The notes beneath the pieces are model-generated. The model was not told the DNA's origin, searched no databases, and saw only the letters and a program-made list of their open reading frames with translations. DNA of 64,000 nt, taken from the NCBI GenBank assembly GCA_003133405.1, contig PKXH01000093.1, positions 5,111 through 69,110 on the forward strand, in the 5' to 3' direction. Each line of letters opens with the position of its first letter. The stretch's first letter is position 1. This document shows positions 8,016-41,763 of the stretch, piece by piece. A program made the position numbers and the translations under genes. Source of the stretch: Acidimicrobiaceae bacterium (lineage in GTDB: Bacteria > Actinomycetota > Acidimicrobiia > Acidimicrobiales > RAAP-2).

Positions 8016-8368
8016 CTGGTAACTATGCTCAGTGCCCTTTCATCCAGAACTTTCTTCAAGCGGCAGTCATATTGGGCATCACCCAACGGTCCCCGTCTGG
8101 CCTTGGAGGGTCACTTGATTCGTCTGCCGACACCTCAACTTGGATCGAGATTTGGGGACTCGTCGACCAGTGGTCGGTCAAATTGGCCTTGGGCTGAAAG
8201 ATCGTACCGAAGCCCAGCAAAGCCGGACCAAGAACCTTCAAAACGATTTTGAAGACGGACGAAGTGTTCATGCCTAGATTCTAAGAGTCCATAAATTGAA
8301 TCCGTTCAGTTGGGTCGGTCTGCAATGTGGGGCGACTCCAGTTGGATCAGACTTTGAGACAGTCAAGT

Positions 8369-8413
8369 AGCCAGTGGAGGGTTGCATTCTTTGCACGTTG
8401 GACCTTCAACGCC
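8369..8413 (+). repeat. Degenerate copy of the array repeat (R0b)
   Basis: AGCCAGTGGAGGGTTGCATTCTTTGCACGTTGGACCTTCAACGCC matches the consensus CCAGTG...GGTTGCA...GC.CGT.GG blocks. Lies 23 nt upstream of R1. Confidence 0.4.
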
Positions 8414-8435
8414 GATCACGATGCAATTATGCTTA

Positions 8436-8481
8436 GCCGCCAGTGCAAGGTTGCAGATCTGTTGCGTCGGGTCTGCGACAC
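8436..8481 (+). repeat. Array repeat R1 (~48-nt tRNA-Leu-3'-end-like unit)
   Basis: GCCGCCAGTGCAAGGTTGCAGATCTGTTGCGTCGGGTCTGCGACAC. Confidence 0.85.
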
Positions 8482-8581
8482 GAGGCTGTTTTAACTCCGC
8501 TGAGCCACATCGTTGGCCGGCATTATTCGCCATCGCTCCCTTGTTGCCGCCAGGGTCGGGAAGTAAAGTAGTAAAGGCGAT

Positions 8582-8812
8582 ATGAACAATAGCGTTGATG
8601 AACTCATCCTTGATCTGCTTGAGTGGCTTGGACCAAAGCCTCGCCCATACTCTGAGGTTCTCGACGCGTGGCGAACGTCATGCCCGCGTCTTCCAGTCTG
8701 GGAAGAAGCGAACGATCGAGGATTCATCGAGCGGCAATTCTTGATTGGGCAGGGATCGCTTATTACCGTCTCCGCCATGGGACTCAAGCACTTGAATGAG
8801 AGCCGTCCATAG
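8582..8812 (+). CDS. Hypothetical small protein (76 aa), cassette cargo
   Basis: Only sizeable ORF between R1 and R2. Same orientation as the repeats. ATG start. Confidence 0.45.
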   Translation: MNNSVDELILDLLEWLGPKPRPYSEVLDAWRTSCPRLPVWEEANDRGFIERQFLIGQGSLITVSAMGLKHLNESRP

Positions 8813-8890
8813 CTACTGGCTCCATCTAGATACTGTTTGAACATCAAAGGTGAGCAAGTGATTCTCAGTTGAGGTAGTCAATCCACCATT

Positions 8891-8935
8891 CTCCAGTGCG
8901 AGGTTGAATTTCTGTGGCGTCGCGTCTCCGACACC
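8891..8935 (+). repeat. Array repeat R2
   Basis: CTCCAGTGCGAGGTTGAATTTCTGTGGCGTCGCGTCTCCGACACC, preceded by the T-arm-like GGTAGTCAATCCACC (8873-8887). Confidence 0.8.
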
Positions 8936-9012
8936 GGTCCGTGTTAACCTGAGCCGCCTACGGCCCCTTGCAAGTTGAGTGCAGCTGTGCCGCCTATTGA
9001 GGGGCAGACGCT

Positions 9013-10605
9013 ATGCGCAAGGGGATCCGTTTTTCGACGGTTGCAGCAAGTCTTTCGTTGGTTGCCTTAAGCCTCGCCGTTGGCGGCATTTCCGCCTCGA
9101 GTGCGACCGTGCACCAAAGGGTCGAGTCCCATACGGCGACGATCATTACCCCGACGGTGAATGCTAACTACACCCTCAATCCCGAAGCTGTGCACCTCAG
9201 CGCTCAAGATCTGCATTTTCAAACCAGTAACTACACCGTTGCTCAGCAACTGACCTACATCGGCACTACTGCAATCCACGTCGGCAATATCATCGTTGTA
9301 TTGACCGCCACTGGACCGTTCTATGGCACAGTTGTCGCCGTCAATGGCCAAACACTCTCAACAAAACCGGCGACGCTAGGAGATATCTTCGAGGTTTTGG
9401 ACCTCACCGTCTCGTCGGCGACCGGAAGCGCTTCGACCGCTGGCAAGGGCGCCGGGACCGGCGCTCCGGCGCTTTCCACCTCTAAAGGCGCGAATGGCAA
9501 CTCTCCCAAAGGTTCGTCCCTTGTTGCGGAATCATCAACCGGGTCCATACAAACCGATCCAACCGCTCGCTCGGGGTCGGCGCCTCTCTTGACCGCAAAT
9601 TGTGATCCGGGCTATCCCACGCCCACTGTCACCTTCAACGCCACCGCGAACGCCGGCACGTTCAACCTCCAAGCATCCTTCAGCTGGGCAGGCCATCTCA
9701 AGTCGGCGAGTATCACCGATAACCCATCGTTTACCGTTTCCATGAGTGCAGCCGTCGCCGGAAACGGCACGTGCACCTTGAGCCAAGATCTCTTCGACGT
9801 GGATCTGCCCACGATTGAGTTCGTCATTGGCTGGGTCCCCGTCTGGATTACCCAAGACTTGTCTGCAACGGCGACACTTGTCGTCACGGCCAACGGTTCG
9901 GCCGCCATCAACGTTGGCTATAGCGCCCACGCAACGCTCGGGGCCGCGAAGCCCCAGGGTGGGTCCTGGGGCGTCATCAGAACGGGGTCGGTCACCACTC
10001 CCGTCACCACAGCGTTCAACATCACCGCCCAGGCCACACTTGATGTGCCGGTGACTTACGAGGCGGCGATCTACGGGCTCGCCGGCCTGAGCGTCACGGC
10101 GGACCCGTTTGCTGCCCTCGCGGTGAATCCCCCACCAGCGTGCAAACCGACACCCTCTCTCAAGCTCGACGGAGGCTTGAAGGGCTCGATCGGCGCCTTC
10201 GTCCACCTCGGCTCGCTCTACAGCTGGGACAACACCTTCGCCCAGTGGACGTTCTTCACGACAAACTTGATAGATCACCTCAACAACTGCCCCCCGATCA
10301 CAACCCATCTCAACATCACCACGGTCTCCAATTCGATACACACTGTCTTTACCCCCGGGGTGCCAGCGGGGAACACCATTCCCCTGGGTTCAACCGTGAT
10401 TATCCAAGACGTGGGGACGGCGAGTAAGTACAAACTGACGTTGACAGGTCCAGACGGCCTGAAGCACATTTCCAATGTGAAACCGACGGTTCCCTATAAC
10501 TACGTCCTTTCGCAATCGGGGAACTATTCGGTGAGCATTGGGGGAGGCATGGTCGGCTTCGGCAACCCGACGATCAGTAAGCAACTGACAATCACCGTGC
10601 CCTGA
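9013..10605 (+). CDS. Secreted Ser/Thr/Ala-rich protein of unknown function (530 aa)
   Basis: Signal-like N-terminus (FSTVAASLSLVALSLAVGG). Long ORF with GAGGGG upstream of the ATG. No recognisable catalytic motif. Confidence 0.6.
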   Translation: MRKGIRFSTVAASLSLVALSLAVGGISASSATVHQRVESHTATIITPTVNANYTLNPEAVHLSAQDLHFQTSNYTVAQQLTYIGTTAIHVGNIIVVLTATGPFYGTVVAVNGQTLSTKPATLGDIFEVLDLTVSSATGSASTAGKGAGTGAPALSTSKGANGNSPKGSSLVAESSTGSIQTDPTARSGSAPLLTANCDPGYPTPTVTFNATANAGTFNLQASFSWAGHLKSASITDNPSFTVSMSAAVAGNGTCTLSQDLFDVDLPTIEFVIGWVPVWITQDLSATATLVVTANGSAAINVGYSAHATLGAAKPQGGSWGVIRTGSVTTPVTTAFNITAQATLDVPVTYEAAIYGLAGLSVTADPFAALAVNPPPACKPTPSLKLDGGLKGSIGAFVHLGSLYSWDNTFAQWTFFTTNLIDHLNNCPPITTHLNITTVSNSIHTVFTPGVPAGNTIPLGSTVIIQDVGTASKYKLTLTGPDGLKHISNVKPTVPYNYVLSQSGNYSVSIGGGMVGFGNPTISKQLTITVP

Positions 10606-10743
10606 CCATTCCCACCCGTAACTAGAAGCACCCTCCGCACTTCCTTCAAGACCCAGAGTCACTTAGGGCGACTGGCTAGCGAATGTAGAGTTTCGTTCAT
10701 CATGTGGGTGAACATCAGTGGGGCACTTCAGGATTCCAACCGA

Positions 10744-10787
10744 GCCGCCAGTGCAAGGTTGCAGACTTGTCACGTCGGGTCCGTGAC
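10744..10787 (+). repeat. Array repeat R3
   Basis: GCCGCCAGTGCAAGGTTGCAGACTTGTCACGTCGGGTCCGTGAC. The right stem is fully Watson-Crick (GTCACG/CGTGAC). Confidence 0.85.
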
Positions 10788-11056
10788 TTGAAGTGTGTTT
10801 GCTTGCCTCCAGACCTTCTCTGCGTCGTAGAATGTGGAGATGGTGGACTCAGAACGCTTCTCAGGAATGTTGCCGAATCATTCGCGGCGGCTTCCATGGG
10901 CAGTACGTCATCGCCATCCTCAAAACCGACTGCTACGGCGACTCTCTTGGATCTGGAGCAATCCAATCACGATTGCAATCCCAAGTCAGATTCACAATCG
11001 TCGGGAAGACATTCGTGGTCTTGCCGGACGTCTTAGGCGACGGCCCTAGTCGATCA

Positions 11057-11104
11057 GTCGCCAGTGACTGGTGGCAGACCTGTGGCGTCGGGTCTCCGAC
11101 ACCA
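11057..11104 (+). repeat. Array repeat R4
   Basis: GTCGCCAGTGACTGGTGGCAGACCTGTGGCGTCGGGTCTCCGACACCA. Confidence 0.85.
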
Positions 11105-11191
11105 GTGATGACCCGTTTGGTTGACATCCCACAGGCGCAAAGACCATGGAGTGCAAAGTTCGCTCGGGCGTTCGTGACCGAGCTCAAGGAT

Positions 11192-11548
11192 TTATTCCAG
11201 TTCTTTCCAGTGCTCTCGACCGAAGAGACGACCGTATCGAGCAGTGAGGGAGGGACCCTCATCGCGGGCAGTGTCCGGATGCAGAACGAGGGTACCTTCG
11301 GGTGCCGGTAGAGCCGCTACTTGCTCGTCGGTCAACGCACAACGGATCAATGTCGTTGTGATTTCCGTGATTTGATCTCGGTCTACAAATCGCACTCCGT
11401 GCTTGGTCTTAACGGCAATACCGTCGAAGATGTCTAACTCCGGGATCCACAAGACATGTTCGACCGTTCCGAACTGGGTATCCGTGGAACTGAGTAAGGG
11501 TGTGCCAACTGGCACCCCTCGATATGAAATCGGCTGTCCTTCGTCCAT
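11192..11548 (-). CDS. Hypothetical protein, possibly PRC-barrel-like (118 aa)
   Basis: Only plausible ORF between R4 and R5. Opposite orientation to the repeats. The PRC-barrel resemblance (GTVEHVLWIP...DGIAVKT) is weak. Confidence 0.4.
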   Translation of the reverse strand: MDEGQPISYRGVPVGTPLLSSTDTQFGTVEHVLWIPELDIFDGIAVKTKHGVRFVDRDQITEITTTLIRCALTDEQVAALPAPEGTLVLHPDTARDEGPSLTARYGRLFGREHWKELE

Positions 11549-11674
11549 GGGCTTCCCTTCCTAATTCACTCGAATCTACCTGAGGTGTTGGATTCAAGAG
11601 TTAAGTCGCCCGCTGGCGCGTATGGGGTGGCGCCCGTCGTGGTCGGCAATCGACGGAGTCGACGGTTCATCAAG

Positions 11675-11737
11675 GTGTGGGTGGTTCAAGTCTCCAGTGC
11701 CTGGTTGCAGATCTGTTGCTGCGGGTCTCCGACACCA
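11675..11737 (+). repeat. Array repeat R5 with an extended tRNA-Leu T-arm remnant
   Basis: GTGTGGGTGGTTCAAGTCTCC (11675-11695) matches tRNA 7989-8011 GTGTGGGTTCAAGTCCCGTCTCC. It is followed by AGTGCCTGGTTGCAGATCTGTTGCTGCGGGTCTCCGACACCA. Confidence 0.85.
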
Positions 11738-11791
11738 ACCGTTCCGCGGTCGCGATCTGATTAAGGATGTTTCCGACCTAGCGTTGCTGAC

Positions 11792-12880
11792 GTGAAACTC
11801 TTCACCCGGTCCAGGCTCGCTGTCGGCGTAGTAACTGTGATGGCTATCCTTGTTGCGTACTGCGTTCCAATCGGTAATATCTCACGCGCTTATGCTTCGA
11901 ACGCACCGAAGGGCGCTGCCACACTTTTTTCGGTGGTGAGAAAGATTAGCTTCGGCAATTACGGTCCAGGCGCGAGCATTGCCGCTGTTGACGGACAGTC
12001 AATTTTCCTGACCGGAACCTTCCTTCACGGCAACAGCGCTCCAGCAACTCTGGTTCGTGTCGATCTCCAAAGTTTCACGGTGACGGCGCGAGCAAGGCTT
12101 CCAAGCGTCACGAGCGTCGCCTATGGCGACGACGCACTCTGGTGGGCCACCGGTGCGCCGCTCGGCAACGCTGGCACCACATTGACTCCCGGCCATGGGC
12201 GATTACTACTCAAGGTTGACCCTACGAGCCTGAAGGTCTTGGCACGCTTCGTGCTTCCAGGGCCGACGCTGCTGGTCACGGTGGCGCAGGGCAACGTCTG
12301 GGTTGCGACATCGACAGATCTATTCCGCGTTAACCCAAAGACCGGTGCGATCATTGCTAAGGTCGCTCTCGGTTTTTCCCCGGTGGCACTGGCTCCGTCT
12401 TTCAACAGTGCGTGGCTCTATGCACTTGGCGGTACAGCTAGAAGCCACTTGATATTGGCCGACTACTCTGCGGTCTCCGGACACCGTCTCGGTATCCGTC
12501 AGATTGCGGACTTCAGTGGCGGCCCGCTGGCTGTGGTACGTGGGGGAGTTTGGATTCCGGTGCAGAGCACCAAGACTCAGTCCACGACAGCGCGACTCTT
12601 CAAAGGTCGACGCTTCACTCCCAGCTCATCAGTGGGAAAGTTCACATTTGATACCCAAGCGTATGTCGAAGCCAACATTCTGTGGCTGATCGACGCGGGC
12701 GGACGTGGGCCGACAGTGTGCGCCAATCCCGCGAACGGGATCATACGAGCCAAAGGGAGTCCGGTCGGAGTTGAGTACGGAGCTGCGGCGATTGACGGGG
12801 GCAGTACGTACCTGCTGCGCAACACTGGTACCAACGAATCTCTGCTCAAGATAGTCGCTTCGTCGGATTGCTCTCGATGA
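11792..12880 (+). CDS. Secreted or membrane-anchored protein of unknown function (362 aa)
   Basis: GTG start. N-terminal hydrophobic anchor (LAVGVVTVMAILVAYCV). Long uninterrupted ORF. Confidence 0.6.
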   Translation: MKLFTRSRLAVGVVTVMAILVAYCVPIGNISRAYASNAPKGAATLFSVVRKISFGNYGPGASIAAVDGQSIFLTGTFLHGNSAPATLVRVDLQSFTVTARARLPSVTSVAYGDDALWWATGAPLGNAGTTLTPGHGRLLLKVDPTSLKVLARFVLPGPTLLVTVAQGNVWVATSTDLFRVNPKTGAIIAKVALGFSPVALAPSFNSAWLYALGGTARSHLILADYSAVSGHRLGIRQIADFSGGPLAVVRGGVWIPVQSTKTQSTTARLFKGRRFTPSSSVGKFTFDTQAYVEANILWLIDAGGRGPTVCANPANGIIRAKGSPVGVEYGAAAIDGGSTYLLRNTGTNESLLKIVASSDCSR

Positions 12881-12964
12881 GACCGCGTTGACGCAATGCG
12901 ATTATTTGCACATCGCCAATTCTGACGGGTCAAACCGCCAATATTCCGAGCCACATGGAACATA

Positions 12965-13513
12965 ATGGGGAACGTGAGTCGCACAACACCCACGCTGTTC
13001 GTCATGGTTGGTCTGCCAGCATCTGGGAAGAGCACACGGGCCAAGCAGATTGAAGAAGAACGTCGCGCCTTGAGGCTGACTCCCGACGAGTGGATGATCC
13101 CACTGTTCAACGACAATGACGCCAACGGGAAGCGTAACGTCCTCGAGGGCCGCTTTATTTGGCTCGCGCTTCGCGCCCTGCGCCATGGTATCGACGTCGT
13201 CTTGGACTTCGGTGTCTGGGGCAAGGACGAGCGAACCGCCCTCCGAGCCCTCGCCGCCGCGGCGGGGGCGTCGTGCGAACTCGTCTATCTCGAGATTGAC
13301 GAAGACCAACAGCGACGACGGCGTGACGCTCGTGCTTCTGAGGATTCTGAGACGACCTTCGACATCTCCGATGAAGACCTTGATGAGTACCGGCGACGTT
13401 TCGTGCCTCCCAATGACGCCGAACTATCAGAAGCCGAACTTGACCCGCCTCCGGCTGGCTACACCAACTGGAGCTCGTGGGCCTCCGAATGGTGGCCAAC
13501 ATCGTTCCAGTGA
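12965..13513 (+). CDS. P-loop (AAA_33-type) kinase/ATPase
   Basis: Walker A VMVGLPASGKST near the N-terminus. 182 aa, typical size for a small-molecule or polynucleotide kinase fold. Confidence 0.75.
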   Translation: MGNVSRTTPTLFVMVGLPASGKSTRAKQIEEERRALRLTPDEWMIPLFNDNDANGKRNVLEGRFIWLALRALRHGIDVVLDFGVWGKDERTALRALAAAAGASCELVYLEIDEDQQRRRRDARASEDSETTFDISDEDLDEYRRRFVPPNDAELSEAELDPPPAGYTNWSSWASEWWPTSFQ

Positions 13514-13563
13514 GCGTCACGCTGCTCGCCAGTGTTTGGGACCGACTCGCTCCCTCTAATGAA

Positions 13564-13612
13564 GCCGCCAGTGCCCCTTGGTGGCAGAGCGAGCGGGACG
13601 GCCCTGCGACAC
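13564..13612 (+). repeat. Array repeat R6a (diverged right half)
   Basis: GCCGCCAGTGCCCCTTGGTGGCAGAGCGAGCGGGACGGCCCTGCGACAC. The left stem GCCGCC/GGTGGC pairs at all six positions. Confidence 0.7.
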
Positions 13613-13646
13613 GAACCCACACGGTTCACCTCATCCGCTAAAGAGA

Positions 13647-13682
13647 GGTTGCAGACCTGTTACGTCGGGTCTCTGACACCAG
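13647..13682 (+). repeat. Array repeat R6b (right two-thirds only)
   Basis: GGTTGCAGACCTGTTACGTCGGGTCTCTGACACCAG. Lacks the CCAGTG left end. Lies 34 nt after R6a. Confidence 0.75.
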
Positions 13683-13763
13683 CCAGAAACTCACGACAAT
13701 TCGCTGTCGTTTGATACCAGAACTGGCAAGTGGGTTTTCTAGCATTCTCTGCCCAGTCGGCCT

Positions 13764-14099
13764 CTATTTCGAAGTTGCGAGTAAGTAAATGACCATGGCT
13801 AGTAAGAGGATGAACGAGGCAACGAACACCAAGCCATTTATTGCTCTGACAACGGAGACAATCCGCTTGAGCCAGGTCGGGGTCTGAGAAACGTGACGTC
13901 GATAAAGGACTGCCCAAACAGGAGTTAGCAGGGCGACCAGGACCATCGGAAGCAATAAGGCAACCAAGATCGATCCCGAAGTCACAGCTACCTTTATACC
14001 GTGTAGTTCGCATTCCTTCGCCTTGACTGCGATTGGCAAATCGCAGTTTTTGTAGTGCTCTGCACTAAAGACCAATCCTGTCGTTAATTGAGTCGCCAA
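13764..14099 (-). CDS. Hypothetical small membrane protein (111 aa)
   Basis: Two hydrophobic helices. Lies in a visibly AT-richer pocket. No homology recognisable. Confidence 0.4.
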   Translation of the reverse strand: MATQLTTGLVFSAEHYKNCDLPIAVKAKECELHGIKVAVTSGSILVALLLPMVLVALLTPVWAVLYRRHVSQTPTWLKRIVSVVRAINGLVFVASFILLLAMVIYLLATSK

Positions 14100-14188
14100 T
14101 TCTTGATACCAGACCCATCACGTCGGTCAGCGTCCACACGAATTGCGGTTGGGGACCTAGATCGTTCCCATCTCTCGATGTCTGGGAG

Positions 14189-14647
14189 TTGAAGAGACAG
14201 ACTGTTGGAGTGACGGGCATTAGTGGCATTGTGCGCCGCGCAACTTCAATGGACCTTCAAGCGGTGTTGGAGCTTGACCGCATTGCGCCAGTTGGTCACG
14301 AGCGGGGTGAACTTCTCACGACTCGTGTGCAGTCCGGCGAGGTCATCCTCCTTGAGCACGAAGGGCGCGTATCAGGCTACGCCGTCATTAGATCCCACTC
14401 GTTCTTTGGGCGCGACTTTGTCGAGTTGCTGGCGGTGGCCGCTAGCGAACGCCGTCACGGCGTTGGCAGCCATTTACTCCAGCAAGCCGTCGCTCTGTCC
14501 TCTAGCAGTCGGATCTTCACCTCGACCAATCGATCCAATATTCAGATGGTCGGCATGTTAGAGAAGGAAGGCTGGAAATTCAGTGGACAACTTGAGGGGA
14601 TCGACGAGGGAGATCCAGAGCTGGTTTATTACAAAACCTCACCGTGA
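14189..14647 (+). CDS. GNAT-family N-acetyltransferase
   Basis: Motif A RRHGVGSHLLQQAV. The start is uncertain: TTG at 14189 or in-frame GTG at 14231. Confidence 0.75.
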   Translation: MKRQTVGVTGISGIVRRATSMDLQAVLELDRIAPVGHERGELLTTRVQSGEVILLEHEGRVSGYAVIRSHSFFGRDFVELLAVAASERRHGVGSHLLQQAVALSSSSRIFTSTNRSNIQMVGMLEKEGWKFSGQLEGIDEGDPELVYYKTSP

Positions 14648-14684
14648 GTTCCTCTTCGACACAATCAAGACTCGGACGGATCAA

Positions 14685-14728
14685 GCCGCCAGTGAAAGGG
14701 GGCAGATCGTTTGCGTCGGGTCGCGGAC
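14685..14728 (+). repeat. Array repeat R7
   Basis: GCCGCCAGTGAAAGGGGGCAGATCGTTTGCGTCGGGTCGCGGAC, preceded by the T-loop-like GGATCAAGCC. Begins 38 nt after the GNAT stop. Confidence 0.8.
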
Positions 14729-14876
14729 TTAGCGGTTCTCAGATATCTCACTAGACACTTGGGCATCCGTAACGACCGAGGCGCCGATGCGTGAACTCTT
14801 CGTCGCCTGTTTCGCCGCTCGACGCGACGCTAAGGCTTTGTGCGAAAACAAAGCTAACTATAAGTAGTATGACGCC

Positions 14877-15407
14877 ATGTTGAGGTTACGCACGATTTGG
14901 GCGATTGGATTATTGCTCTCGGGAGCTCCGGTGTTGGCGACTTCTGCTTCGGCGTCGACGCGACCAGAGCCTGCATGTTCAAGCGCTCAGTTAGTTGTCT
15001 TAGCGAGCGGATCACTCGCTGCCGCCGGGAACGGCTCTATGGCATTCGACGTAGTGAATCGCGGCGCGAGTTGTCGGATTGATGGATATCCCTCGGTGAC
15101 CTTTCTCAACGCAATAGGTCGTGCGGTCGACAATAGGGACTTTCACAATTCGTCCTCGATGCTCTTCGCAGAACCGAAAGCGTCAATGGTCACTATTGCG
15201 CGTAACGGTGTCGCGACGTTCGGGGTTTCCTGGGGCAATAATCCCGTCAATGATGAGGCGTGCCCACTGTCGGCCAACGCCGTGGTCGAATTGCGCAGTG
15301 GCGTGGAAAACTTCTGGGGCGAGGTTCCGATTGATCCTTCACCGTGTGGAAACTATTTGGTCGTGACACCAATCGAGTCTGGGGCGTGGCCGCGACCAAA
15401 CGGCTAG
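14877..15407 (+). CDS. Secreted DUF4232-like protein
   Basis: Signal peptide. The pattern C-x3-QL...AAGN...N.G..SC.IDGYPSV is typical of DUF4232. Confidence 0.65.
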   Translation: MLRLRTIWAIGLLLSGAPVLATSASASTRPEPACSSAQLVVLASGSLAAAGNGSMAFDVVNRGASCRIDGYPSVTFLNAIGRAVDNRDFHNSSSMLFAEPKASMVTIARNGVATFGVSWGNNPVNDEACPLSANAVVELRSGVENFWGEVPIDPSPCGNYLVVTPIESGAWPRPNG

Positions 15408-15432
15408 TCGATTTATGGTCTTCTGGTGGCGA

Positions 15433-15482
15433 GTCGCCGATGCTTGGTTGCAGACTTGTTGCGTCGGGCCTCCGACACCAGG
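15433..15482 (+). repeat. Array repeat R8
   Basis: GTCGCCGATGCTTGGTTGCAGACTTGTTGCGTCGGGCCTCCGACACCAGG. Begins 26 nt after the stop codon. Confidence 0.85.
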
Positions 15483-15763
15483 AAGGCTCAGGCCACCGAT
15501 CGGCAATACTCGGTTTCGGAACATGTCGCGGCGCTCTTCCGACATGAACGCCGGCGTTCTGCCACCGTCCAGTATCTGATAGTAACGCGACGTCGTCAGG
15601 TCCCAAGTTCCGGTTCATTCAGTTGGGTCATTACTCGGACGATTTCGGGGATTCTCGGATCGACTTCGCCGAACAGTCCACACCTTGGGGAGAGACCCAG
15701 TCAATGGCTCGTTGTGACGAAGGTCCCTAGCGGCTGGCAGAGACGACGGGTAATGCTGAAAAC

Positions 15764-16450
15764 GTGAGTAAGAAGGTGGTGGTCGCAGTTGTCAGCGCCT
15801 TGGTCGTTGTGGGCGCACTGGGGGTTGCGGCGGGGCGGCAATGGGGGTCAGCGCCGACGTCGCCGACGTCATCGACCACCAGCACGCTTCGCCAGGTCCC
15901 GCAACCTGAAACGGCAATATGGCCCTTCGCTTCGACCGTGACACGATTTGGTGACCCAGTACTGGCGGCCCAGGCGTTCGCCACGGACTACCTGGGAATG
16001 GTCACTCCAATAATGGGTGCCTTTCAACAGGGCGATAGTCGTTCGGGTGAAGTTCCAGTCAGAGCCACACCAACCGGCGCCGTGACTTCGATTCTGGTAC
16101 GAGAGTTGACTTTGGCGAACTCGTGGTGGGTAATTGGCGCGTCATGTACGGACATCGTCGTGGCGGCCCCTTCGTCATCTGAAAGCATTTCTTCACCAGT
16201 GAAACTCCGAGGACGAAGTACCGCATATGAAGCGGTCGTCAACGTCGAAGTTCGCCAGGACGGGACGCTCGCCGCGCTGAAGAGTGACACCGTGATGGGT
16301 GGCTCCATGGGTGTCATGGGCGCGTTTACTAAGTCGATGGCGTTCACAGTGCCGTCGTCTCGAGGAGGAGCGCTCTTGTTCCGCACGCTCTCCGCCAAGG
16401 ATGGGCATGTCATTGAGGCCAGCGTCGTCCGCGTTGCTTTTCTGAAGTGA
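15764..16450 (+). CDS. Membrane-anchored protein with a Gmad2-type Ig-like domain (tentative)
   Basis: N-terminal TM segment, Ser/Thr linker and a C-terminal beta-rich domain (ISSPVKLRGRSTAYEAVVNVEVRQDG...) resembling Gmad2. Confidence 0.55.
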   Translation: MSKKVVVAVVSALVVVGALGVAAGRQWGSAPTSPTSSTTSTLRQVPQPETAIWPFASTVTRFGDPVLAAQAFATDYLGMVTPIMGAFQQGDSRSGEVPVRATPTGAVTSILVRELTLANSWWVIGASCTDIVVAAPSSSESISSPVKLRGRSTAYEAVVNVEVRQDGTLAALKSDTVMGGSMGVMGAFTKSMAFTVPSSRGGALLFRTLSAKDGHVIEASVVRVAFLK

Positions 16451-16527
16451 TGTGCCACTCAATGCCGGCGGCGGTCCTCGGCACTATCGGACCAAAGCAG
16501 AAGCGTTAGCCGAAGTAGATTCAACCA

Positions 16528-17274: not shown

Positions 17275-17332
17275 CGCATAGTGGCATCCATGAGGCGGCC
17301 CCCAATGCCTATCAGGGCAATGAGGTCTCGGG

Positions 17333-17380: not shown

Positions 17381-17402
17381 TCAGATTTCGGATGCTGAAC
17401 CG

Positions 17403-18765: not shown

Positions 18766-18793
18766 TTGCTTTCGGAACAACCTTGACCGGTTA

Positions 18794-23244: not shown

Positions 23245-23251
23245 GGCGACT

Positions 23252-32172: not shown

Positions 32173-32732
32173 GATGATTCAACTTTCACCCATCGGGCGA
32201 GCACGTTCTCTCCACCGGCGCCGCGTTCGATGACGTGAAAGACCACGCGCAAGCCCTAATTGGCCAGTCCGGCGACCGTTGAAGTGTGTCGCGCCGTCGC
32301 CGGCGTGTACGACACCTGGAGCAAAGTTAAAAATGATCCATCGATTGAATGCTGTAAACGCAACCCGATCCTCGAGGCGACTGACGCCGCATGCAGAGCA
32401 TGCTGGCTACCTGAACATTGAAAGGAGGCAAGCTTCACTCCGACCTTCACGCCGAGGCTGCTGGGTCCCATATTTTCACTAGCCTACTTACCACCCCCAC
32501 TTCAAAGTGGCCGCTGAATCACAAGTTCACGCACAAGTGAGCACGAGTTCGCCACTTCGTCATTGGTCGAGCGAAGAAGAAACGTCTACTTTGGGTGAGC
32601 GTGTCAAGATCCTCGATGATTCTGCGATTCACTGGTCTTGTATCATCGGACGCTCGAACGACCGGTTCTCCAACGTGCCTCACGCTGCCAGCGGCAAGAA
32701 AACCGCAGACCGCAAGTTCAAGGCGAACGCGA

Positions 32733-33260
<528 letters not shown>

Positions 33261-33272
33261 TTCGTCCTCATC

Positions 33273-34664
33273 TCAGATGCTGTAGGCCTCTTGGTGCAGC
33301 GCTTTGGCGTCTACCCCAGCGCGGCGAGCCATAGAAGAGGCGTCTCGAACAAAGTCTTCCGGACCACTTATAAATACGTCACGTTTGGCCATATCGGGTA
33401 CCAATTTCGTAATTTGATCTAACCGGACCGTCTCTCTGCCTCCGACGAGTCGATGGACTACACCTTTGCGAATTCGCACAAGCTCTTCCACCTCGTCGGC
33501 CAAGACTAAATCCTCTTCGCGCGACGCACGAAGCACGACGATCGGTCGCGACTTTAGGGGTAAATCCTCCAAAAGGGATCTTGCCGCGGTCACGCCAACA
33601 CCGCCGGCTATCAAGAGCACGCGTCCGCGTCGCATGGCAAAGGCCGTAAATGAACCGTAAGGGCCCTCGACGGCTACCGGGGTTCCCACCTTGACGTGCG
33701 CGAGTGCTCTTGAAAAATTACCAACACCTTTAACCGTCAATCGAATATAGGGGGGCTTAGGCAACGCGGACACCGTGAACGGGTGGGCCTGCCACCACAT
33801 TTTGGATGTCATGAAACGCCATTCAAAGAATTGACCACCGGAGATAGCTAATCGATCAAGATGGCGCCCCTCGAGAATTACCGATACGACGCCGGGGCCC
33901 TCCGGCCTAACCTCCACCACTCGTAATCGGTGCAGAACCGACCGATAGATGGGAAAGCCGATGCGGTACGTGACAACGAGCGCGGCGGCCAAGAGCCACG
34001 CGAGCGCCCAGACAAACTTCGCGAGCGGGTGCCCGACGAATGACGGACCGAGCACTATCTCATGGCCGACGGAGATGAAGAGCGCAAGGTACATCAGTAG
34101 GTGAATGAGCCACCAGCTCTCTCTTGGTATCCGGGACCGAATCCGTGGCAGGGAAATTAACCCGATGCCAACCATGATGCCGAGCGCCACCGTGGCCGAG
34201 ACCATGTTGGGAAACTTACTTATGATTACGCCAACCTCTTTTAGCACGCCTCGCTTCGCGACCTCAGCGTAGGCGACGCTCAAAAATATGGCGTGGACTG
34301 TGATCAAGGCGATGGTCCATGGCGCCAAGAGTCGGTGCCAATGAATGACCCCGTGTTGACCCAACATTCGTTCGAGAGCCGGGAGTCGACTCGCGAGAAT
34401 GACCATGAGCAGCGCGAGGTAGGTGCCGACCATCCCGGTTGTGGATCCGACGAACATGGCGAACCCACCGGGGACGTGGAGCTCGCTAAGAGTGCCGTCG
34501 ACAATTGGCAGTCCAGCCACGAAACCTAACCCCAGACCGCATACCAACACGACGGCGTAGAAGGAGAAGGGGTTGGGACCATGGGTAACAATCATTCGGG
34601 TCTGGGCCGGCCGAGTCCTCGGCCCTCGGTCCCGCGATTGAGAGTCGAACTTACTAATTTCCAA
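33273..34664 (-). CDS. NOX/FRE-like ferric-reductase-domain membrane protein with FAD/NAD(P)-binding domain
   Basis: TM domain with paired His (HWHRLLAPW...TVHAI, IHLLMY...VGHEI). HPFTVS FAD motif. LIAGGVGVTAARS NAD(P) motif. Confidence 0.85.
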   Translation of the reverse strand: MEISKFDSQSRDRGPRTRPAQTRMIVTHGPNPFSFYAVVLVCGLGLGFVAGLPIVDGTLSELHVPGGFAMFVGSTTGMVGTYLALLMVILASRLPALERMLGQHGVIHWHRLLAPWTIALITVHAIFLSVAYAEVAKRGVLKEVGVIISKFPNMVSATVALGIMVGIGLISLPRIRSRIPRESWWLIHLLMYLALFISVGHEIVLGPSFVGHPLAKFVWALAWLLAAALVVTYRIGFPIYRSVLHRLRVVEVRPEGPGVVSVILEGRHLDRLAISGGQFFEWRFMTSKMWWQAHPFTVSALPKPPYIRLTVKGVGNFSRALAHVKVGTPVAVEGPYGSFTAFAMRRGRVLLIAGGVGVTAARSLLEDLPLKSRPIVVLRASREEDLVLADEVEELVRIRKGVVHRLVGGRETVRLDQITKLVPDMAKRDVFISGPEDFVRDASSMARRAGVDAKALHQEAYSI

Positions 34665-34879
34665 TTGATGCTCCAGTACGTTGCCGCTGAAGAGAGGTGT
34701 CAGTCCAGGCTAATCAGCGATAGGGAATTCTCCTCAGAATCTTGGCAACTTCTTAATGAGTGTCCGGAGTGTTTGTGCACCGTTCAGTCATCCGTGAGGA
34801 GCGGCCGGCTCCGTGAGATATGTCTCTCGTCATTAAGGCGTGAAGTCACTCCGCATCGCAATTTCCCTAGAGACGTTCT

Positions 34880-35695
34880 TCATTCGTGAGCGGCCAGTGA
34901 GATCAAAGGGAAACCGGGCGTCCAGTGCCGCTCTTGATCGAATGAGACCGTGAACGCCTCAAACTCCGATAACTCGTCAATGACGTCAAGGAGATCGTTG
35001 CCCGCGATAGCTAGAGCGGTGGCCAGTGCGTCGGCCAGACCGAGGTCGGGCCCCATAACACTGGCTGAAGCAACACGGGTGCAGAAGTGGCCCGAGTGGG
35101 GATCCATGAGGTGTTGCCCGCGCTCGTAGCTACCAGATGTGGCAATGCAACCATCGAGAGCAACGATGGCGGTCAATTCCTTCGGCGAGTGGGGATTGGT
35201 GATGCCGACTTTGAATTTTTCGCCTTCGGAAGGATATCCAAAAGAAGCAATATCGCCCGCGGCATTCACGATGGCACCTTGCACGGGGGCGCCAAGAAGC
35301 AGATGAAGTGCCCGTTGTGCCGCCCATCCTTTGACGTAGCCGGTGGGATCCGTACCACCTGGAAGGGCCCAGGGATCGAACCAGCCCTGGGAAAGTTCGC
35401 GAGCGGCTTGGCATGCCTCGAGTACTTCGCCAATGACCACAGGCGCCTTCGCGAGATCAATCTCCCCTCGCCGGAGCTTACTCATCGGGCTGTCAGCTTG
35501 CCAGAGACTAAAAACACTGTCGGCGTGATGAAGCGACGCCAGGGCAGAACTTAGGTAGGGATCGACCAGTTCGCGATTCACGGTGGGGGGACCGTAAACA
35601 TCGATCGTCACAACCGTGCCCATCACGTCCTCGGCGTGATGCAAGATCAGGTCATTCGACTCGAGCGGCGCACCGAGAGTGTCGACGTTGACCAT
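34880..35695 (-). CDS. apbE: FAD:protein FMN transferase (ApbE family)
   Basis: DPTGYVKGWA and ATSGSYERG motifs. The start abuts the stop of the upstream FMN-binding gene. Confidence 0.85.
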   Translation of the reverse strand: MVNVDTLGAPLESNDLILHHAEDVMGTVVTIDVYGPPTVNRELVDPYLSSALASLHHADSVFSLWQADSPMSKLRRGEIDLAKAPVVIGEVLEACQAARELSQGWFDPWALPGGTDPTGYVKGWAAQRALHLLLGAPVQGAIVNAAGDIASFGYPSEGEKFKVGITNPHSPKELTAIVALDGCIATSGSYERGQHLMDPHSGHFCTRVASASVMGPDLGLADALATALAIAGNDLLDVIDELSEFEAFTVSFDQERHWTPGFPLISLAAHE

Positions 35696-36346
35696 TTAGA
35701 GTCCCAGCGTGGTCAATGCGCCCTGGAGGGACTGGATGAAGCCCGCACTGGTATAGCTAGCTCCTGAGACGCTTTGAATGTTGCCGCTTTGGGCCGCCAT
35801 GGCCTCTTGCTCAAGAATCGGAATCGCCATTGAGTCAATCGACTGCGATCGGTAGTTTCCTCCATCGTTGAGGCTGCCAATAGTAACTGACGTGATCTTG
35901 GACCCGGTCACCTTGACGCTGACTGAAAGTAGACCGAAGTGATAGTCAAGCAGCGGTCCGGTTGCCGTCCGCGAACCCGTGGATACGGTCGTGGTCGTCG
36001 TTGGGGCCGGTGGCCGAGTCGTCGTTGGTGCCGGTGGCCGAGTCGTCGTTGGGGCCGATGGCCGAGTTGTGGTCGGAGTAGTTGGACTCGTCGTCGCGGT
36101 GGCACCCCCGTCACCTCGTCTTCTTCGTGGAGGGAGCGAGGGCGTCGTTGTGTTTGGTGTCGTCGTGCTTGGTGTCGTCGTGCTTGGTGTCGTTGGGGCC
36201 GGTGGACTCGTGGTTGCTGCTGACGAGGTGGATCCCGCACTCGCCGTCAAGCCAGCCAACGAAAGCGAGGCGGGGGCCGTATGGAATTGGAGGACGCCGG
36301 CAAGACCCAGTGCCGTGCCAACGATGACCAAAGGGGCTCGTTTCAT
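35696..36346 (-). CDS. Extracytoplasmic FMN-binding domain protein (second copy)
   Basis: Signal anchor, Pro/Thr repeat linker, IQSVSGASYTS flavinylation motif. Confidence 0.8.
   Translation of the reverse strand: MKRAPLVIVGTALGLAGVLQFHTAPASLSLAGLTASAGSTSSAATTSPPAPTTPSTTTPSTTTPNTTTPSLPPRRRRGDGGATATTSPTTPTTTRPSAPTTTRPPAPTTTRPPAPTTTTTVSTGSRTATGPLLDYHFGLLSVSVKVTGSKITSVTIGSLNDGGNYRSQSIDSMAIPILEQEAMAAQSGNIQSVSGASYTSAGFIQSLQGALTTLGL
35994..36065. repeat. 3 x 24-nt tandem repeat encoding (PAPTTTRP)n
   Basis: GTCGTCGTTGGGGCCGGTGGCCGA and two near-identical units. Lies inside CDS 35696..36346. Confidence 0.85.
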
Positions 36347-36362
36347 CGCGCTATTTCAATCA

Positions 36363-37760
36363 TCAGAACGCAAACTCCTCAATATGAATTCGATCGGGGT
36401 TCACTCTCAGGCGCGAAAGAGCTACGGCAATCTGATCAGTGAATCCCGAGGGGCCGCAGAGATAGACGTCACATTTGGCGATATCTGGAATCAGTCGCCG
36501 TAAGACATTGGCGTCGAGGGGAACTTCCTTGCGCGAACCGACGATTTCGTGCAATTGGCCTTGATGCTGATCTACGAGTGTTTGCATCTCTTCATGATGC
36601 ACAAGATCCTCGACCTTTGACGCGCGAATTACGGCGGTGACACGTACGTCTGTTGGTAAATCTTCCAGCAGGGCACGAAGTGGTGTTATGCCAACGCCCG
36701 CGCCGATCAACACCACTTTTTCGCTCTGACGCACGTGGCGCGTGAACGCGCCGTATGGGCCCTCGACGAAGACGCGGGTGCCCGGAGTCAATTGTGCCAC
36801 CGCGCCTGATTGATCCCCGAGTGCCTTAACGGTTACGCGCAGATACGGTGGACGGGGCAGTGCCGAAAGCGAGTAGGGGTGGGGATGCCACCAGAGCCCC
36901 TTCTGGAGAAAACGCCACTGAAAGAACTGGCCGCCCGCGACGTTCAAGGTCGAGAGATTTCGACCAGAGATGGTCAGTGAGTACACCCCCGGAGCCTCCT
37001 CTTGGACTGCCGCGACCCTGAACTGATGTTTCAGATTCCGTGCGATCGGTACGAAGACGCGACTGGCGAGCACGACGGCCGCGGCACCTGCCCACAGAGC
37101 AATCCAGAACAGTTTCGCAAGGGGGTGACCCAGGAACATAACGCCCGTTTGAATCTGATGAGTGAAGGCGAGCATCAACGCGATGTAAATGTAGAAGTGA
37201 ACAACCCACCACGTCTCGTACTTCATATGGCGACGAGCGATGCGAAATGATGTCACGCCCGCGACGACGAGCAAGCCAAAGCCAACGGTCGCGGCCAGCA
37301 TGTCGGGGTAGTGCTGAATGAAGACCAAAAATTGAGCGACCGGTCCAACACTGGTCGTTTGACCGTAGCCCACCGTGGTAAAGAGAATGTGCAGCGCGAT
37401 TAATCCAATGGGCCACCCGCCGATGCGTCGATGCCAGCGCACGAGTCGGTCTTGGCCCACGACTCGCTCCAGCCACGGCATGCGGGACATCAGCACGACC
37501 ATGATGAGCATCAAGTAGCTACCGGTCATGGCACATAGGCGTCCGAGTGCCATAAGCAGTCCGCCCGGGGCGGCGAGCTGGCTCCACGACTCCGCCGTAA
37601 TGACGAGCGCGATCGAGATGCCGAGCCCAACACCGGCCAGCCCCGCCATACTGTCGGCGATCCAGGGACGAGGAGCGGAACTGGTCCGGCGCCTTTTCGG
37701 TGGGGCGTCACCTGACCAGGAGGGTGCCACCGTCCTGCGCCTAAGTGAGGTTGACTGCAT
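36363..37760 (-). CDS. NOX/FRE-like ferric-reductase-domain membrane protein with FAD/NAD(P)-binding domain (paralog)
   Basis: RWHRRIGGW...ALHIL and VHFYIY...FTHQI His pairs. HPYSLS motif. LIGAGVGITPLRAL motif. Confidence 0.85.
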   Translation of the reverse strand: MQSTSLRRRTVAPSWSGDAPPKRRRTSSAPRPWIADSMAGLAGVGLGISIALVITAESWSQLAAPGGLLMALGRLCAMTGSYLMLIMVVLMSRMPWLERVVGQDRLVRWHRRIGGWPIGLIALHILFTTVGYGQTTSVGPVAQFLVFIQHYPDMLAATVGFGLLVVAGVTSFRIARRHMKYETWWVVHFYIYIALMLAFTHQIQTGVMFLGHPLAKLFWIALWAGAAAVVLASRVFVPIARNLKHQFRVAAVQEEAPGVYSLTISGRNLSTLNVAGGQFFQWRFLQKGLWWHPHPYSLSALPRPPYLRVTVKALGDQSGAVAQLTPGTRVFVEGPYGAFTRHVRQSEKVVLIGAGVGITPLRALLEDLPTDVRVTAVIRASKVEDLVHHEEMQTLVDQHQGQLHEIVGSRKEVPLDANVLRRLIPDIAKCDVYLCGPSGFTDQIAVALSRLRVNPDRIHIEEFAF

Positions 37761-37881
37761 ACGAAAACGGTAACGCTTCGACGTAAGAAGACGGCAAGAA
37801 TTCGTTACAAATGCTGAATCTGGGAATGTGACAATTGTGTGTCTTCGCGTTCCCAGCCAAACTTAAGTCTTCTCTCAATCT

Positions 37882-37926
37882 CCCATGCGTGTTAGCAGAC
37901 CTGGAACGTCGGGTTCTCAACACCAC
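37882..37926 (+). repeat. Array repeat R15 (isolated, diverged)
   Basis: CCCATGCGTGTTAGCAGACCTGGAACGTCGGGTTCTCAACACCAC, preceded by the T-loop-like TCAATCTCC. Confidence 0.6.
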
Positions 37927-38098
37927 AGATCGGCTGACAAGGTGCGGTCCGACTTCTTCCAATGTGATCAGAACCGGGTCCGTCGGCCGAGAAATCAACA
38001 TCAAGCACTCTTGGATTCGGAGACGGAGTCACAAGTAACCGTCGCAGTCGGCGCGAGTCCGACTGACGCACTCCCTCGAAGTTGGTTGCTAGCCTGCC

Positions 38099-39637: not shown

Positions 39638-39650
39638 TCGGACCTTGACG

Positions 39651-40190
39651 ATGAGCAACCTCGATGAGCACGGTCGTCCGGAACCTCCCCTCGCGGGCGA
39701 TGAATTCGCAACACTCGTGGGTTTTCTGGAGTACCAACGCGCGACGTTTGCATGGAAATGTGAAGGGCTGGACGCGACTGGTCTGAACGCGACCGTTGCT
39801 TCGTCGTCGATGACACTGGGCGGGATGCTCAAGCATCTGGCCCTCGTGGAGGACTACTGGTGCTCGCAGCGCCTACTCGGACACGACTCGCAGCTCCCTT
39901 GGGACGCAGTGGATTGGGACGCCGATCCCGACTGGGAATGGCACTCGGCGGTTTCGGATACTCCCGAGCAATTACGTACCCTCTGGCAAGGCGCGGTGGT
40001 CCGCTCTCGCTCCTCCGTGGAGGAGGCGCTCGCCGACGGTGGCCTGGCGCGGATGGCCCAACGTCCCTGGCCCGACGGTCGGACACCAAGCCTGCGCTGG
40101 ATCTTATGTCACCTGATCGAGGAGTACGCGCGACACAATGGCCACGCCGATCTCCTTCGTGAGTCAGTGGACGGGCTTAGGGGCGAGTAG
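39651..40190 (+). CDS. DinB/DUF664-family (mycothiol-transferase-like) protein
   Basis: ATG at 39651. The ORF-track start at 39393 overlaps the previous gene. C-terminal HLIEEYARHNGHADLLRE. Confidence 0.75.
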   Translation: MSNLDEHGRPEPPLAGDEFATLVGFLEYQRATFAWKCEGLDATGLNATVASSSMTLGGMLKHLALVEDYWCSQRLLGHDSQLPWDAVDWDADPDWEWHSAVSDTPEQLRTLWQGAVVRSRSSVEEALADGGLARMAQRPWPDGRTPSLRWILCHLIEEYARHNGHADLLRESVDGLRGE

Positions 40191-40227
40191 CGGCCAGAGC
40201 AAGTGGTGACGTTGTATGGCTCGAGAA

Positions 40228-40647
40228 TCACTCAAGGTTGGAAATTTGTTCAAGGCGAGTTGCGATGAGCTTTTTAACTAGGACCTTAGGCAGTGGCGCA
40301 CCAACTGGAAACTGGAGGGTTCCTCGGGACCACGAATACTGAGTGAGATCCTCTTTAAGAACTTCGAGCACGGATCCACTGTGGGGAAAGTAACTCAGAT
40401 GGTGCTTGTACGCCGCGAAGCCAGCGATTACCTTGCCCCGAAGCCAGAAGGCCGGAATGCCGTACGAGATGCCCTCTTCGGCTTCGGGAACGATGGCCAA
40501 AATAGTCTGACGCAGAATGGACAACGTCTCTCGCTGGAAGGCATCCAAAGTTGTGAGGTAGTCGTCGATCCCTTGCTTCGACAAGATTTGTTCCTCCACT
40601 TCTTTCGCGCAATCCCCATGACGGCGCTGAGAGCAGTCCGCACACAT
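40228..40647 (-). CDS. DUF1801 (YdhG-like) domain protein
   Basis: IDDYL...ILAIVPEAEEGISYGIPAF...YKHHLSYFP pattern. Start uncertain. Confidence 0.65.
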   Translation of the reverse strand: MCADCSQRRHGDCAKEVEEQILSKQGIDDYLTTLDAFQRETLSILRQTILAIVPEAEEGISYGIPAFWLRGKVIAGFAAYKHHLSYFPHSGSVLEVLKEDLTQYSWSRGTLQFPVGAPLPKVLVKKLIATRLEQISNLE

Positions 40648-40732
40648 TAGGCGAGAACCGTTTCGTCTCGCTGGTCAATATTTAACCAGCACGCTGTTCA
40701 TTGGGCAACGTGGCCTGAGCGTCAAGCACGGC

Positions 40733-41179
40733 TCACGCGCGAACGAGTTCCACCACTGGAATGATTCGGGTGGTCTTGGCTTGGTACTCCGCAAACCCTG
40801 GGTACCGTTCGGCCTGGATGGCGTAAATTCGGTCGTGTTCATCGCCAGTTACCACATTGGCAGTTGCGTTGACCTTCTCCTCGCCTATCTCGATCGTAAC
40901 CAGGGGATCGGCGACGAGATTGTAGAACCAGTCGGGGTTCGTGTCGGCGCCGGCCTTTGAGGCAAAGACATATATTTTGCCGTCATCGTTCAAATACATC
41001 ATCGGATTGATTCGTTTCGCCCGCGAGCGGGCCCCGGTGGTGTGAAGGAGTAAGACTGGAGCTCCTTCAAAATTTCCACCCACCTTGCCCGTGTTGGCCC
41101 GAAACTCGGCGATGATGGTCGCGTTCCACGCGTTGGTGGCATCCGCCGCGCTCTGTTGTGACGAATCGTTATCACTCAC
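40733..41179 (-). CDS. Deazaflavin (F420)-dependent nitroreductase-family oxidoreductase (FDOR-A/DUF385)
   Basis: LLLHTTGARSRAKRINPMMY...TNPDWFYNL...IPVVEL pattern. Confidence 0.8.
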   Translation of the reverse strand: MSDNDSSQQSAADATNAWNATIIAEFRANTGKVGGNFEGAPVLLLHTTGARSRAKRINPMMYLNDDGKIYVFASKAGADTNPDWFYNLVADPLVTIEIGEEKVNATANVVTGDEHDRIYAIQAERYPGFAEYQAKTTRIIPVVELVRA

Positions 41180-41282
41180 GATGGCCCTCCTCTGTTCATG
41201 TCGTGCTCTCGTAGATTAACGACCAATTTTGAAAGACGGACCGGAAGATAGACTCGACCCAATTACTAGAAGAGGGGGCCCT

Positions 41283-41603
41283 ATGTCCAAATACTTACTC
41301 GAAATCAGGTACACCTTGGAAGGTGTCAAAGGAGTAAAGGCAAAGGGTGGCTCTGCACGCGTGGCGGCGGCCACCGAGTTGATCGAGGGCGTCGGTGGAA
41401 AGATCGAGTCCTTCTACTTCGCCTTCGGTGGCACCGACGCATTCGTCATCGCGGAACTGCCCGATGACGTCAGCGCGGTGGCGGCCGCGCTGACCGTGGG
41501 CGCCGGCGGCGGCGCCACAACCCGCACTATGTCGCTCTTGACGCCAGCGCAGGTGGACGCGGCCGCAAATATGAGCGTGAAGTACCGCCCGCCCGGCAGT
41601 TGA
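41283..41603 (+). CDS. GYD domain protein
   Basis: MSKYLLEIRYTLEGVKGV...GGTDAFVIAELPDD. ATG at 41283. Confidence 0.75.
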   Translation: MSKYLLEIRYTLEGVKGVKAKGGSARVAAATELIEGVGGKIESFYFAFGGTDAFVIAELPDDVSAVAAALTVGAGGGATTRTMSLLTPAQVDAAANMSVKYRPPGS

Positions 41604-41763
41604 GCGAACTTTAGATCGCAGAACTTCGTAGAGACCGGCGCCAGATAACGCTCGCGGGACGTGGCGCCCGTCATTTTCTCGAGCCAACTTCGTGTGAAAG
41701 GTCGACCCGGTTTGGTGGTCGGCTTTCACGACCTTTGTTACTACGATTAAGTCGAGGTGTTAC

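Follow-up and report, generated by a model that had tools for sequence, protein, structure and literature searches.

Genes and sites at the tRNA-Leu(GAG) locus

The stretch considered here, called the window below, is 64,000 nts of contig PKXH01000093.1 from a metagenome-assembled genome (MAG) of an uncultured Acidimicrobiaceae/Acidimicrobiales lineage of peat and soil. Its one tRNA gene, tRNA-Leu(GAG) at 7932–8015 on the + strand (found by ARAGORN and by Rfam, which matched nothing else in the window), is followed by a variable region whose conserved right border is nadK (41764–42573, +). The GC content, ~0.63–0.68 over positions 1–7000 before the tRNA gene, falls to 0.53–0.62 over 8–41 kb. 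A repeat of ~50–67 nts is present in the variable region in 16–17 copies between 8360 and 23258, all on the + strand and spaced by 66 nts to 3.2 kb, with one more at 37871. The last ~13 nts of the tRNA gene (GTCTCCGACAC) form the right half of every copy, and the gene seems to act as the anchor of the array and as an attB-like partner for it. From comparison with related genomes, the region is likely to consist of small integrative units in tandem, assembled by a large serine recombinase (LSR) whose target is the 3′ end of tRNA-Leu(GAG). The copies of the repeat are called sites in what follows.

The units mostly consist of one open reading frame (ORF) co-oriented with the repeats, and every feature named in this paragraph is on the + strand unless stated. 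The first unit after the tRNA gene (8016–8434) is non-coding, as the preliminary description of this DNA had supposed; it has no credible ORF and no recombinase remnant. Near its end is a degenerate site (8360–8426, 46 bits), which forms a doublet with the next (8429–8495, 69.7 bits). After the site at 8882–8948 comes a gene for a secreted protein of no known family (9013–10605), and then sites at 10737–10803, at 11050–11116, which is the left edge of a cassette common to G060 (91% identity), and at 11683–11749, which joins two cassettes found elsewhere in separate genomes (G060 and G022). A second secreted protein without a family (11792–12880) and an AAA_33 kinase (12965–13513) precede a weak site copy (13557–13626, 19.6 bits) and a further site at 13627–13693. 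There follow a GNAT gene (14189–14647), a site (14678–14744), a DUF4232 gene (14877–15407), a site whose centre is CC and not TC (15426–15492), and genes for Gmad2 (15764–16450) and fn3 (16528–17274) proteins. The site at 17325–17391 is the left edge of a methyltransferase cassette (gene at 17403–18221, − strand) common to four other genomes. Beyond it are sites at 18292–18358 and 18804–18870, a NUDIX gene (18886–19398), a site with a right arm of the recombinase-tail type (19912–19978), another methyltransferase gene (20337–21101), a site with a short (V2) left arm (21148–21207), a second GNAT gene (21214–21861) and a gene for an acidic 166-aa protein (22018–22518). The compact array ends with a doublet at 23127–23193 and 23196–23258.

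Such doublets, or ‘empty’ units, with cores 66–69 nts apart (8360–8495 and 23127–23258), are seen also at the loci L048 and L051, and the spacer between the two cores is often conserved (ATCAGGCC…CAAG). The acidic 166-aa ORF, which belongs to no family, is present in at least 35 genomes of the genus at 72–92% identity, not always in arrays, and its summed contig depth in peat metagenomes is several-fold above that of its neighbours.

From 23259 to 37870 there is a site-free block of lower GC content and mixed gene orientation, which encodes a BNR protein, an MBL hydrolase, a methyltransferase, lipases and NOX-like, FMN_bind and ApbE proteins. A covariance-model scan with filters off gave no further significant copy between 23258 and the isolated distal site at 37871–37937 (+, 45.5 bits). 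The first unit of the block, 23178–24603, is site-flanked in G043. At 32733–37760 a pair of genes, ferric-reductase-like (FAD/NAD) and FMN_bind, is duplicated, and the two copies share a single ApbE gene.

Recombinase genes of the region and the genome

The preliminary description held that 8016–41763 is free of genes for recombinases of the tyrosine, serine, DDE or HUH kind, and four kinds of search agree with it. Pfam scans of 50 ORFs, nearly all of the coding capacity and including the small ORFs in 8016–8847 and 10704–11548, gave no recombinase or transposase family. A six-frame search of the whole MAG (2.27 Mb in 105 contigs, 90% complete) gave zero matches to PF00589, PF00239, PF01797, PF01548 and PF00665 in the region. 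When eight tyrosine recombinases were compared with it by tblastn, the best match had an E value of only 0.17 and was in frame with an alpha/beta hydrolase gene. A home-made tyrosine-recombinase hidden Markov model (HMM) and a 10-sequence LSR HMM, run on six-frame fragments, found nothing there. Neither the Pfam, the six-frame nor the HMM scans revealed a mobility gene in the units of the window, and among the secreted and small cassette proteins without a family, when read by eye, none is recombinase-like. As had also been claimed, xerD (46389–47306, +), a housekeeping gene that is syntenic in relatives, is the only recombinase gene of the window; it is also the sole tyrosine recombinase gene of the contig in the PF00589 search.

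In the MAG as a whole, the same six-frame searches gave no real match to PF00239 and no match at all to PF01797 and PF01548 (HUH and IS110 enzymes). Matches to PF00665 (rve) are confined to contig C13 and, as a fragment, to C43. The seven PF00589 loci are XerC, XerD and five integrases. The absence of a recombinase from the region is real and is explained by the units being non-autonomous: the region lacks one because it is a row of small cassettes between what appear to be LSR attachment sites, the LSR being kept in this genome only as fragments.

The repeat as a probable recombination site

The consensus of the sites is (C)AAGCCGCCAGTG-N3-GGTTGCAGAYCTGTTG-CGTCGG-G-TC-TCCGAC-ACCA. The core, GTCGG(G/C)-TC-TCCGAC, is a dyad of GTCGG and CCGAC about a central TC; to its left is a conserved arm of ~30–45 nts and to its right the sequence identical to the end of the tRNA gene. 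Left arms are long or short, with a spacing difference of 7–9 nts, and the short form of the site is a nearly perfect 52-nt palindrome. By analogy, long and short left arms may correspond to attP-type and attB-type half sites. The base before TC follows the type of left arm (G with a long arm, C with a short one), and hybrid sites with a long left and a short right arm are present. The ‘short’ right arm, CCGACACCAACAATCTCCG, reads in antisense as codons for PEIVGVGD and would be the end of the recombinase gene itself, or what remains of that end. Exchange can be placed, with some latitude, at or very near the centre of the dyad, since homology between shared cassettes breaks inside the site, the base at the centre is linked to the type of arm, and hybrid sites exist.

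The centre of the site also varies with the host. In some genomes the first central position of the tRNA gene is C instead of T (GTCCCG-C-CTCC), and the centre of the sites matches the tRNA gene of their host in 71 of 79 cases (T in 35 of 41 in T-type hosts and C in 36 of 38 in C-type hosts), counts that come from related hosts and represent few events, not 79 independent ones. For LSRs the central dinucleotide must be identical in both partners, and it sets the polarity of the exchange. The covariation is what would be expected if the sites recombine with the tRNA gene at a matching central dinucleotide.

An attC-like folded site was considered and rejected. Folds of single sequences are suggestive, but among 86 sites of several genomes neither the GTCGG/CCGAC stem nor an alternative TGTTG/CGACA stem covaries beyond what is seen in shuffles (the observed score was reached by 117 and 381 of 500 shuffles, respectively). 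The arms of one site are no more complementary to each other than are arms of different sites (4.45 versus 4.24, p 0.22), left and right arms assorting independently. The lack of covariation, together with arms that are not site-specific, argues for a conserved sequence recognised in double-stranded form and not for an attC-like fold.

A large serine recombinase that ends in the site

In five well-assembled relatives, PF00239 searches found ORFs of ~480–540 aa, which lie ~1 kb after tRNA-Leu in G006, G048 and G063 and also beside other arrays. Their Pfam domains are Resolvase, Recombinase and Zn_ribbon_recom (L041:2343–3926 and L041:6295–7728), and the RVST motif and Cys clusters are visible in the sequences. 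An LSR gene directly follows tRNA-Leu(GAG), facing it, in at least 14 relatives. All ten intact LSR genes in the loci examined are on the strand opposite to the array, with a 3′ end that overlaps tRNA-Leu or a site; beyond these ten genes, the coordinates fit in seven genomes of the genus (G012, G045, G048, G053, G060, G067 and G076). The C-terminus of the protein, …GVGD(P/G)T-stop, corresponds to the site/tRNA core read in antisense: the Asp codon contains the central dinucleotide, and the tRNA gene or the neighbouring left arm provides the stop and the two codons before it. The cognate enzyme of the sites appears to be this LSR, adjoining the same tRNA gene in homologous arrays. [At G053:C40:60554–62046 an LSR gene is next to tRNA-Leu(GAG), yet that genome has no site recognised by the covariance model.]

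The preliminary description had stated that a recombinase pseudogene inside the array, or a cognate integrase just outside a homologous one, would make the region an ordinary decayed island. The second of these situations is found in relatives, where the LSR adjoins the same tRNA gene in homologous arrays, and this MAG, too, has pieces of the LSR on an array contig. On C84, an array fragment of 3.6 kb, there are an N-terminal piece (aa 50–101, 67% identity, E 5e-15) with a stop, and a C-terminal piece (aa 423–477, 65% identity, E 2e-15) which ends at a site core; these are apparently what is left of a decayed LSR copy. Another C-terminal piece is on C54. In the window itself, 19948–20028 on the − strand, to the right of the centre of the site at 19912–19978, shows 54% identity over 24 aa to the LSR tail of relatives and reads …VGIGDPT-stop, ending across the site core. 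Its tblastn E value of 0.79 is weak when taken alone, and its position, strand and frame all fit. It is probably a vestige of the last ~25 codons of an LSR and not a gene.

Distribution of arrays and movement of cassettes

The site family is present in 57 of 76 genomes of the genus, with up to 105 copies in one (G083). This MAG has ~50–60 copies on 14 contigs, many of which are short array fragments. Among the Acidimicrobiales of peat and soil, more than 20 MAGs at the species level have an array of co-oriented sites directly after tRNA-Leu(GAG); in some of them the flanking solute-binding protein is only ~50% identical to its counterpart here. No account of such arrays in Acidimicrobiales was found in a search of the literature.

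Single cassettes of the window recur, flanked by sites and in other arrangements, in other species at 79–92% nucleotide identity. In the genomes that share cassettes, identity of the conserved solute-binding protein gene ahead of the tRNA does not exceed 80%, and in several of them the gene is undetectable at the nucleotide level. In G022 the cassettes at 11714–12943 and 21961–22528, here separated by 9 kb, lie side by side. The view that the array is not of great age is borne out, with cassettes 86–92% identical between species and the flanking core gene at most 71–80%. Contigs from peat metagenomes, when compared with 6500–26000, have many joints at sites in both forward and backward order; nearly all sides of these joints are only 20–37 nts long and may stem from the arrays of other organisms, and they were not used as evidence.

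Partial copies of tRNA-Leu(GAG), 60 nts long, were seen in array contigs of this genome (G000) at C61:37830–37895, C61:39300–39435 and C91:5529–5587. Each of the two on C61 is followed by a site after 22 nts, and one partial copy has compensatory changes in the variable arm.

How the array may have been built

The following scheme would account for the region. Each repeat would be an attachment site for the LSR, and a circular unit with one site would be joined, through exchange at the central dinucleotide, to the site nearest the tRNA gene. The incoming unit would supply a new functional 3′ end for the tRNA gene and push older units outwards, and a unit would leave again by recombination between two direct sites. 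Autonomous units would be of ~4 kb, with the LSR gene at the tRNA-proximal end and reading into the site, so that the last 2–3 codons and the stop of the LSR would be contributed by the far side of the crossover. The majority of units would be single genes without the enzyme, which for this array would be supplied in trans, for instance by an incoming autonomous unit. With all units of the window non-autonomous, and with no intact LSR gene in the MAG, movement would be possible only in trans, and the array may currently be idle. The earlier suggestion of mobilisation in trans, as for satellites or for clustered attC sites without an integron-integrase (CALIN), was thus the right kind of reading; its weakness was that only tyrosine-type enzymes were proposed for the search.

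Several observations weigh against construction of the array by the LSR. Known LSRs join attP to attB and need a directionality factor for the reversal, which leaves repeated use of hybrid sites unexplained. The right arms are poorly conserved past CCGACACCA, unlike those of a textbook attP, and some breakpoints between shared cassettes are 10–15 nts away from the centre. Neither a circular form nor an empty site has been demonstrated. PF00239 and LSR HMM searches found no intact LSR in the 90%-complete MAG, and a strong PF00239 match is lacking in 28 of the 57 site-bearing genomes, G083 with its 105 sites among them, and in 9 of the 22 genomes with at least 10 sites, counts in which incompleteness of MAGs may hide some LSRs. 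The association of LSR genes with sites at the level of genomes is weak (odds ratio 2.9, p 0.07). Because those 28 genomes lack a strong match, ‘ordinary decayed island’ is also too weak a label: arrays without a recombinase are the common state.

Other explanations

The repeats could instead be structured or regulatory intergenic elements (tRNA-like minihelices, terminators or elements resembling repetitive extragenic palindromes), shuffled without a dedicated enzyme by homologous recombination or slippage. The site core can indeed fold as a hairpin that is followed by ACCA, the short form is a nearly perfect palindrome, breakpoints are somewhat heterogeneous, and many genomes have sites and no LSR. 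Against this are the failure of either proposed stem to covary beyond shuffles, the tracking of the tRNA by the nucleotide at the site centre, and LSR genes that end exactly in sites; the 13 nts shared with the tRNA gene are too short for homologous insertion, yet arrays always start there. This origin of the array is regarded as improbable.

Sites served by a tyrosine recombinase encoded elsewhere are a shade less credible again. The enzyme would be of the tRNA-Val-linked type on C43, of the C47 type, of the type in an actinomycete integrative and conjugative element (AICE) of G010, or XerC/XerD. Five genomes have C43-type integrases within 1–10 kb of arrays, and the type is more frequent in genomes with sites than in those without (34 of 57 versus 3 of 19). 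However, C43 elements have their own att, 45 nts of tRNA-Val, and the array there is cargo inside the element. The C43 type is absent from 7 of the 22 site-rich genomes and both the C43 and C47 types are absent from 5. The number of sites tracks genome size (rho 0.76), and integrase families do not follow the sites once size is considered. The 8.2-kb AICE of G010 is bounded by a direct repeat of the last 23 nts of tRNA-Leu, but its integrase family is confined to G010 and G000, and with that one exception no tyrosine recombinase was found by HMM within 10 kb of tRNA-Leu in ~35 species. XerC and XerD are the only recombinases in all genomes examined; the dif site (C23:109739), however, is unrelated to the array sites. 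Tyrosine recombinases were rejected as the cognate enzyme, the gene on C93 belonging to an island with its own repeat, the C43 genes being at tRNA-Val and the families not following the sites. Likewise the intI-like genes, P4/SSV-type integrases and Xer paralogs put forward in the preliminary description as candidates do not hold up; none tracks the repeats across genomes. A Xer-dependent dif module, as in integrative mobile elements exploiting Xer (IMEX), was set aside too: the units are not dif-flanked, and the chromosomal dif is classical (…GATAATGTTCGTTATGTAAAGT) and unlike the sites.

That the region is the remnant of a classical integron, a CALIN with attC sites once served by IntI, is hardly conceivable: its single-gene cassettes are compact and mostly co-oriented, and their cargo is typical (proteins of the GNAT, methyltransferase, NUDIX and unknown kinds), but in alignments R''/R' boxes are absent and the boundaries lack GTTRRRY, the sites are conserved in sequence and not in structure, an IntI-like gene is found neither in the MAG (PF00589) nor beside tRNA-Leu in ~35 species (HMM), and a published survey found no complete integrons in Actinobacteria (PMC4889954).

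Other integrative elements in these genomes

The AICE-like element of G010 at tRNA-Leu(GAG) (L040, G010:C81:1–8350) encodes an integrase, FtsK/SpoIIIE, Rep_1 and a DnaJ-domain protein, and its 23-nt direct repeats of the tRNA end are accompanied by inverted AAAACGGGA..TCCCGTTTT hairpins. In G000, C43:1689–27506 consists of two tandem integrative elements at tRNA-Val(GAC), with partial copies of tRNA-Val at 20695 and 1689; the cargo of the distal 19-kb element includes four array sites and an rve transposase fragment (3501–3737). C93:32247–47240 (L047) is a 15-kb low-GC island with a divergent tyrosine recombinase at its head, which shares 39% identity with the AICE integrase of G010. The island encodes a DnaJ protein, HTH/M78, two N6/N4 DNA methylases, a ResIII helicase and a D5-type primase, and has a putative direct repeat, CCCCCCTCGCCCAC. 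On the contig of the window, ~40 kb past the window end, there is a classical actinobacterial dif-like site (G000:C23:109731–109760, …CGCCGATAATGTTCGTTATGTAAAGT). No other site of this kind was matched in the MAG, which suggests that the window is probably near the replication terminus.

Comparison with known systems and significance

The array resembles, by analogy, SCC units without a recombinase, CALINs and the islands formed by tycheposons, and differs from each in enzyme, site or size of unit. The staphylococcal cassette chromosome (SCC) is moved by the large serine recombinases CcrAB or CcrC, and its tandem units are at the 3′ end of rlmH/orfX between direct repeats of an att core. The two have in common that units accrete in tandem at one conserved gene's 3′ end, that the att core is directly repeated between them, that the enzyme is an LSR and that some units lack a recombinase. 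Here, however, the target is tRNA-Leu(GAG) and not rlmH, the host is of the Acidimicrobiales, the reading frame of the recombinase extends across the att site, and the units are far smaller (often one gene, 0.3–3 kb) and more numerous, with 17 in this array and at most ~100 sites per genome. Some SCC units (psiSCC) have no recombinase and depend on one in trans (10.1101/336396; PMC3900703).

With integrons and CALINs the array shares short, mostly promoterless and co-oriented cassettes, accessory-enzyme cargo and entry at one fixed end, and arrays without a linked integrase are common among integron-type clusters (PMC4889954). Its sites, however, are not attC, having a conserved sequence, no covarying hairpin and, it seems, a crossover at the dyad centre; in place of the tyrosine recombinase and attI of integrons there would be a serine recombinase and a tRNA anchor. 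Tycheposons of Prochlorococcus target tRNA genes, have their own integrase, mostly of a tyrosine clade with a minority of LSRs, and carry replication genes (10.1101/2020.12.28.424599). Their islands are likewise anchored at specific tRNA genes, with older elements pushed inwards, partial tRNA copies and degraded elements, whereas most units here are single genes without a mobility gene and the repeat has a conserved arm of ~30 nts that is not tRNA-derived. The LSRs of phages and of integrative and conjugative elements (ICEs; phiC31, Bxb1 and TnpX types) have the same domain architecture and dyad-symmetric att sites of ~40–70 bp, but the cargo here is a single gene and not a phage or an ICE, and hybrid sites form long direct arrays. 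An LSR gene next to the att site is a feature of the relatives, not of the window itself.

It is quite possible, if short of probable, that peat and soil Acidimicrobiales have in these arrays a serine-recombinase counterpart of the integron: a gene-capture platform anchored at tRNA-Leu(GAG), with further arrays elsewhere in the genome, into which single-gene cassettes are inserted, from which they are excised and by which they are exchanged between species, the LSR being present only on occasional autonomous units and most arrays persisting without it. A puzzling absence of recombinase genes would then become a testable dependence on one named enzyme family. The natural family of short LSR sites, with its many variants, might also be of use in studies of site recognition. 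If this is correct, a gene-capture architecture arose also with a different enzyme and type of site (an LSR and a tRNA anchor), and with tens to ~100 sites per genome it would explain part of the flexible genome of these abundant uncultured Acidimicrobiales of peat and soil.

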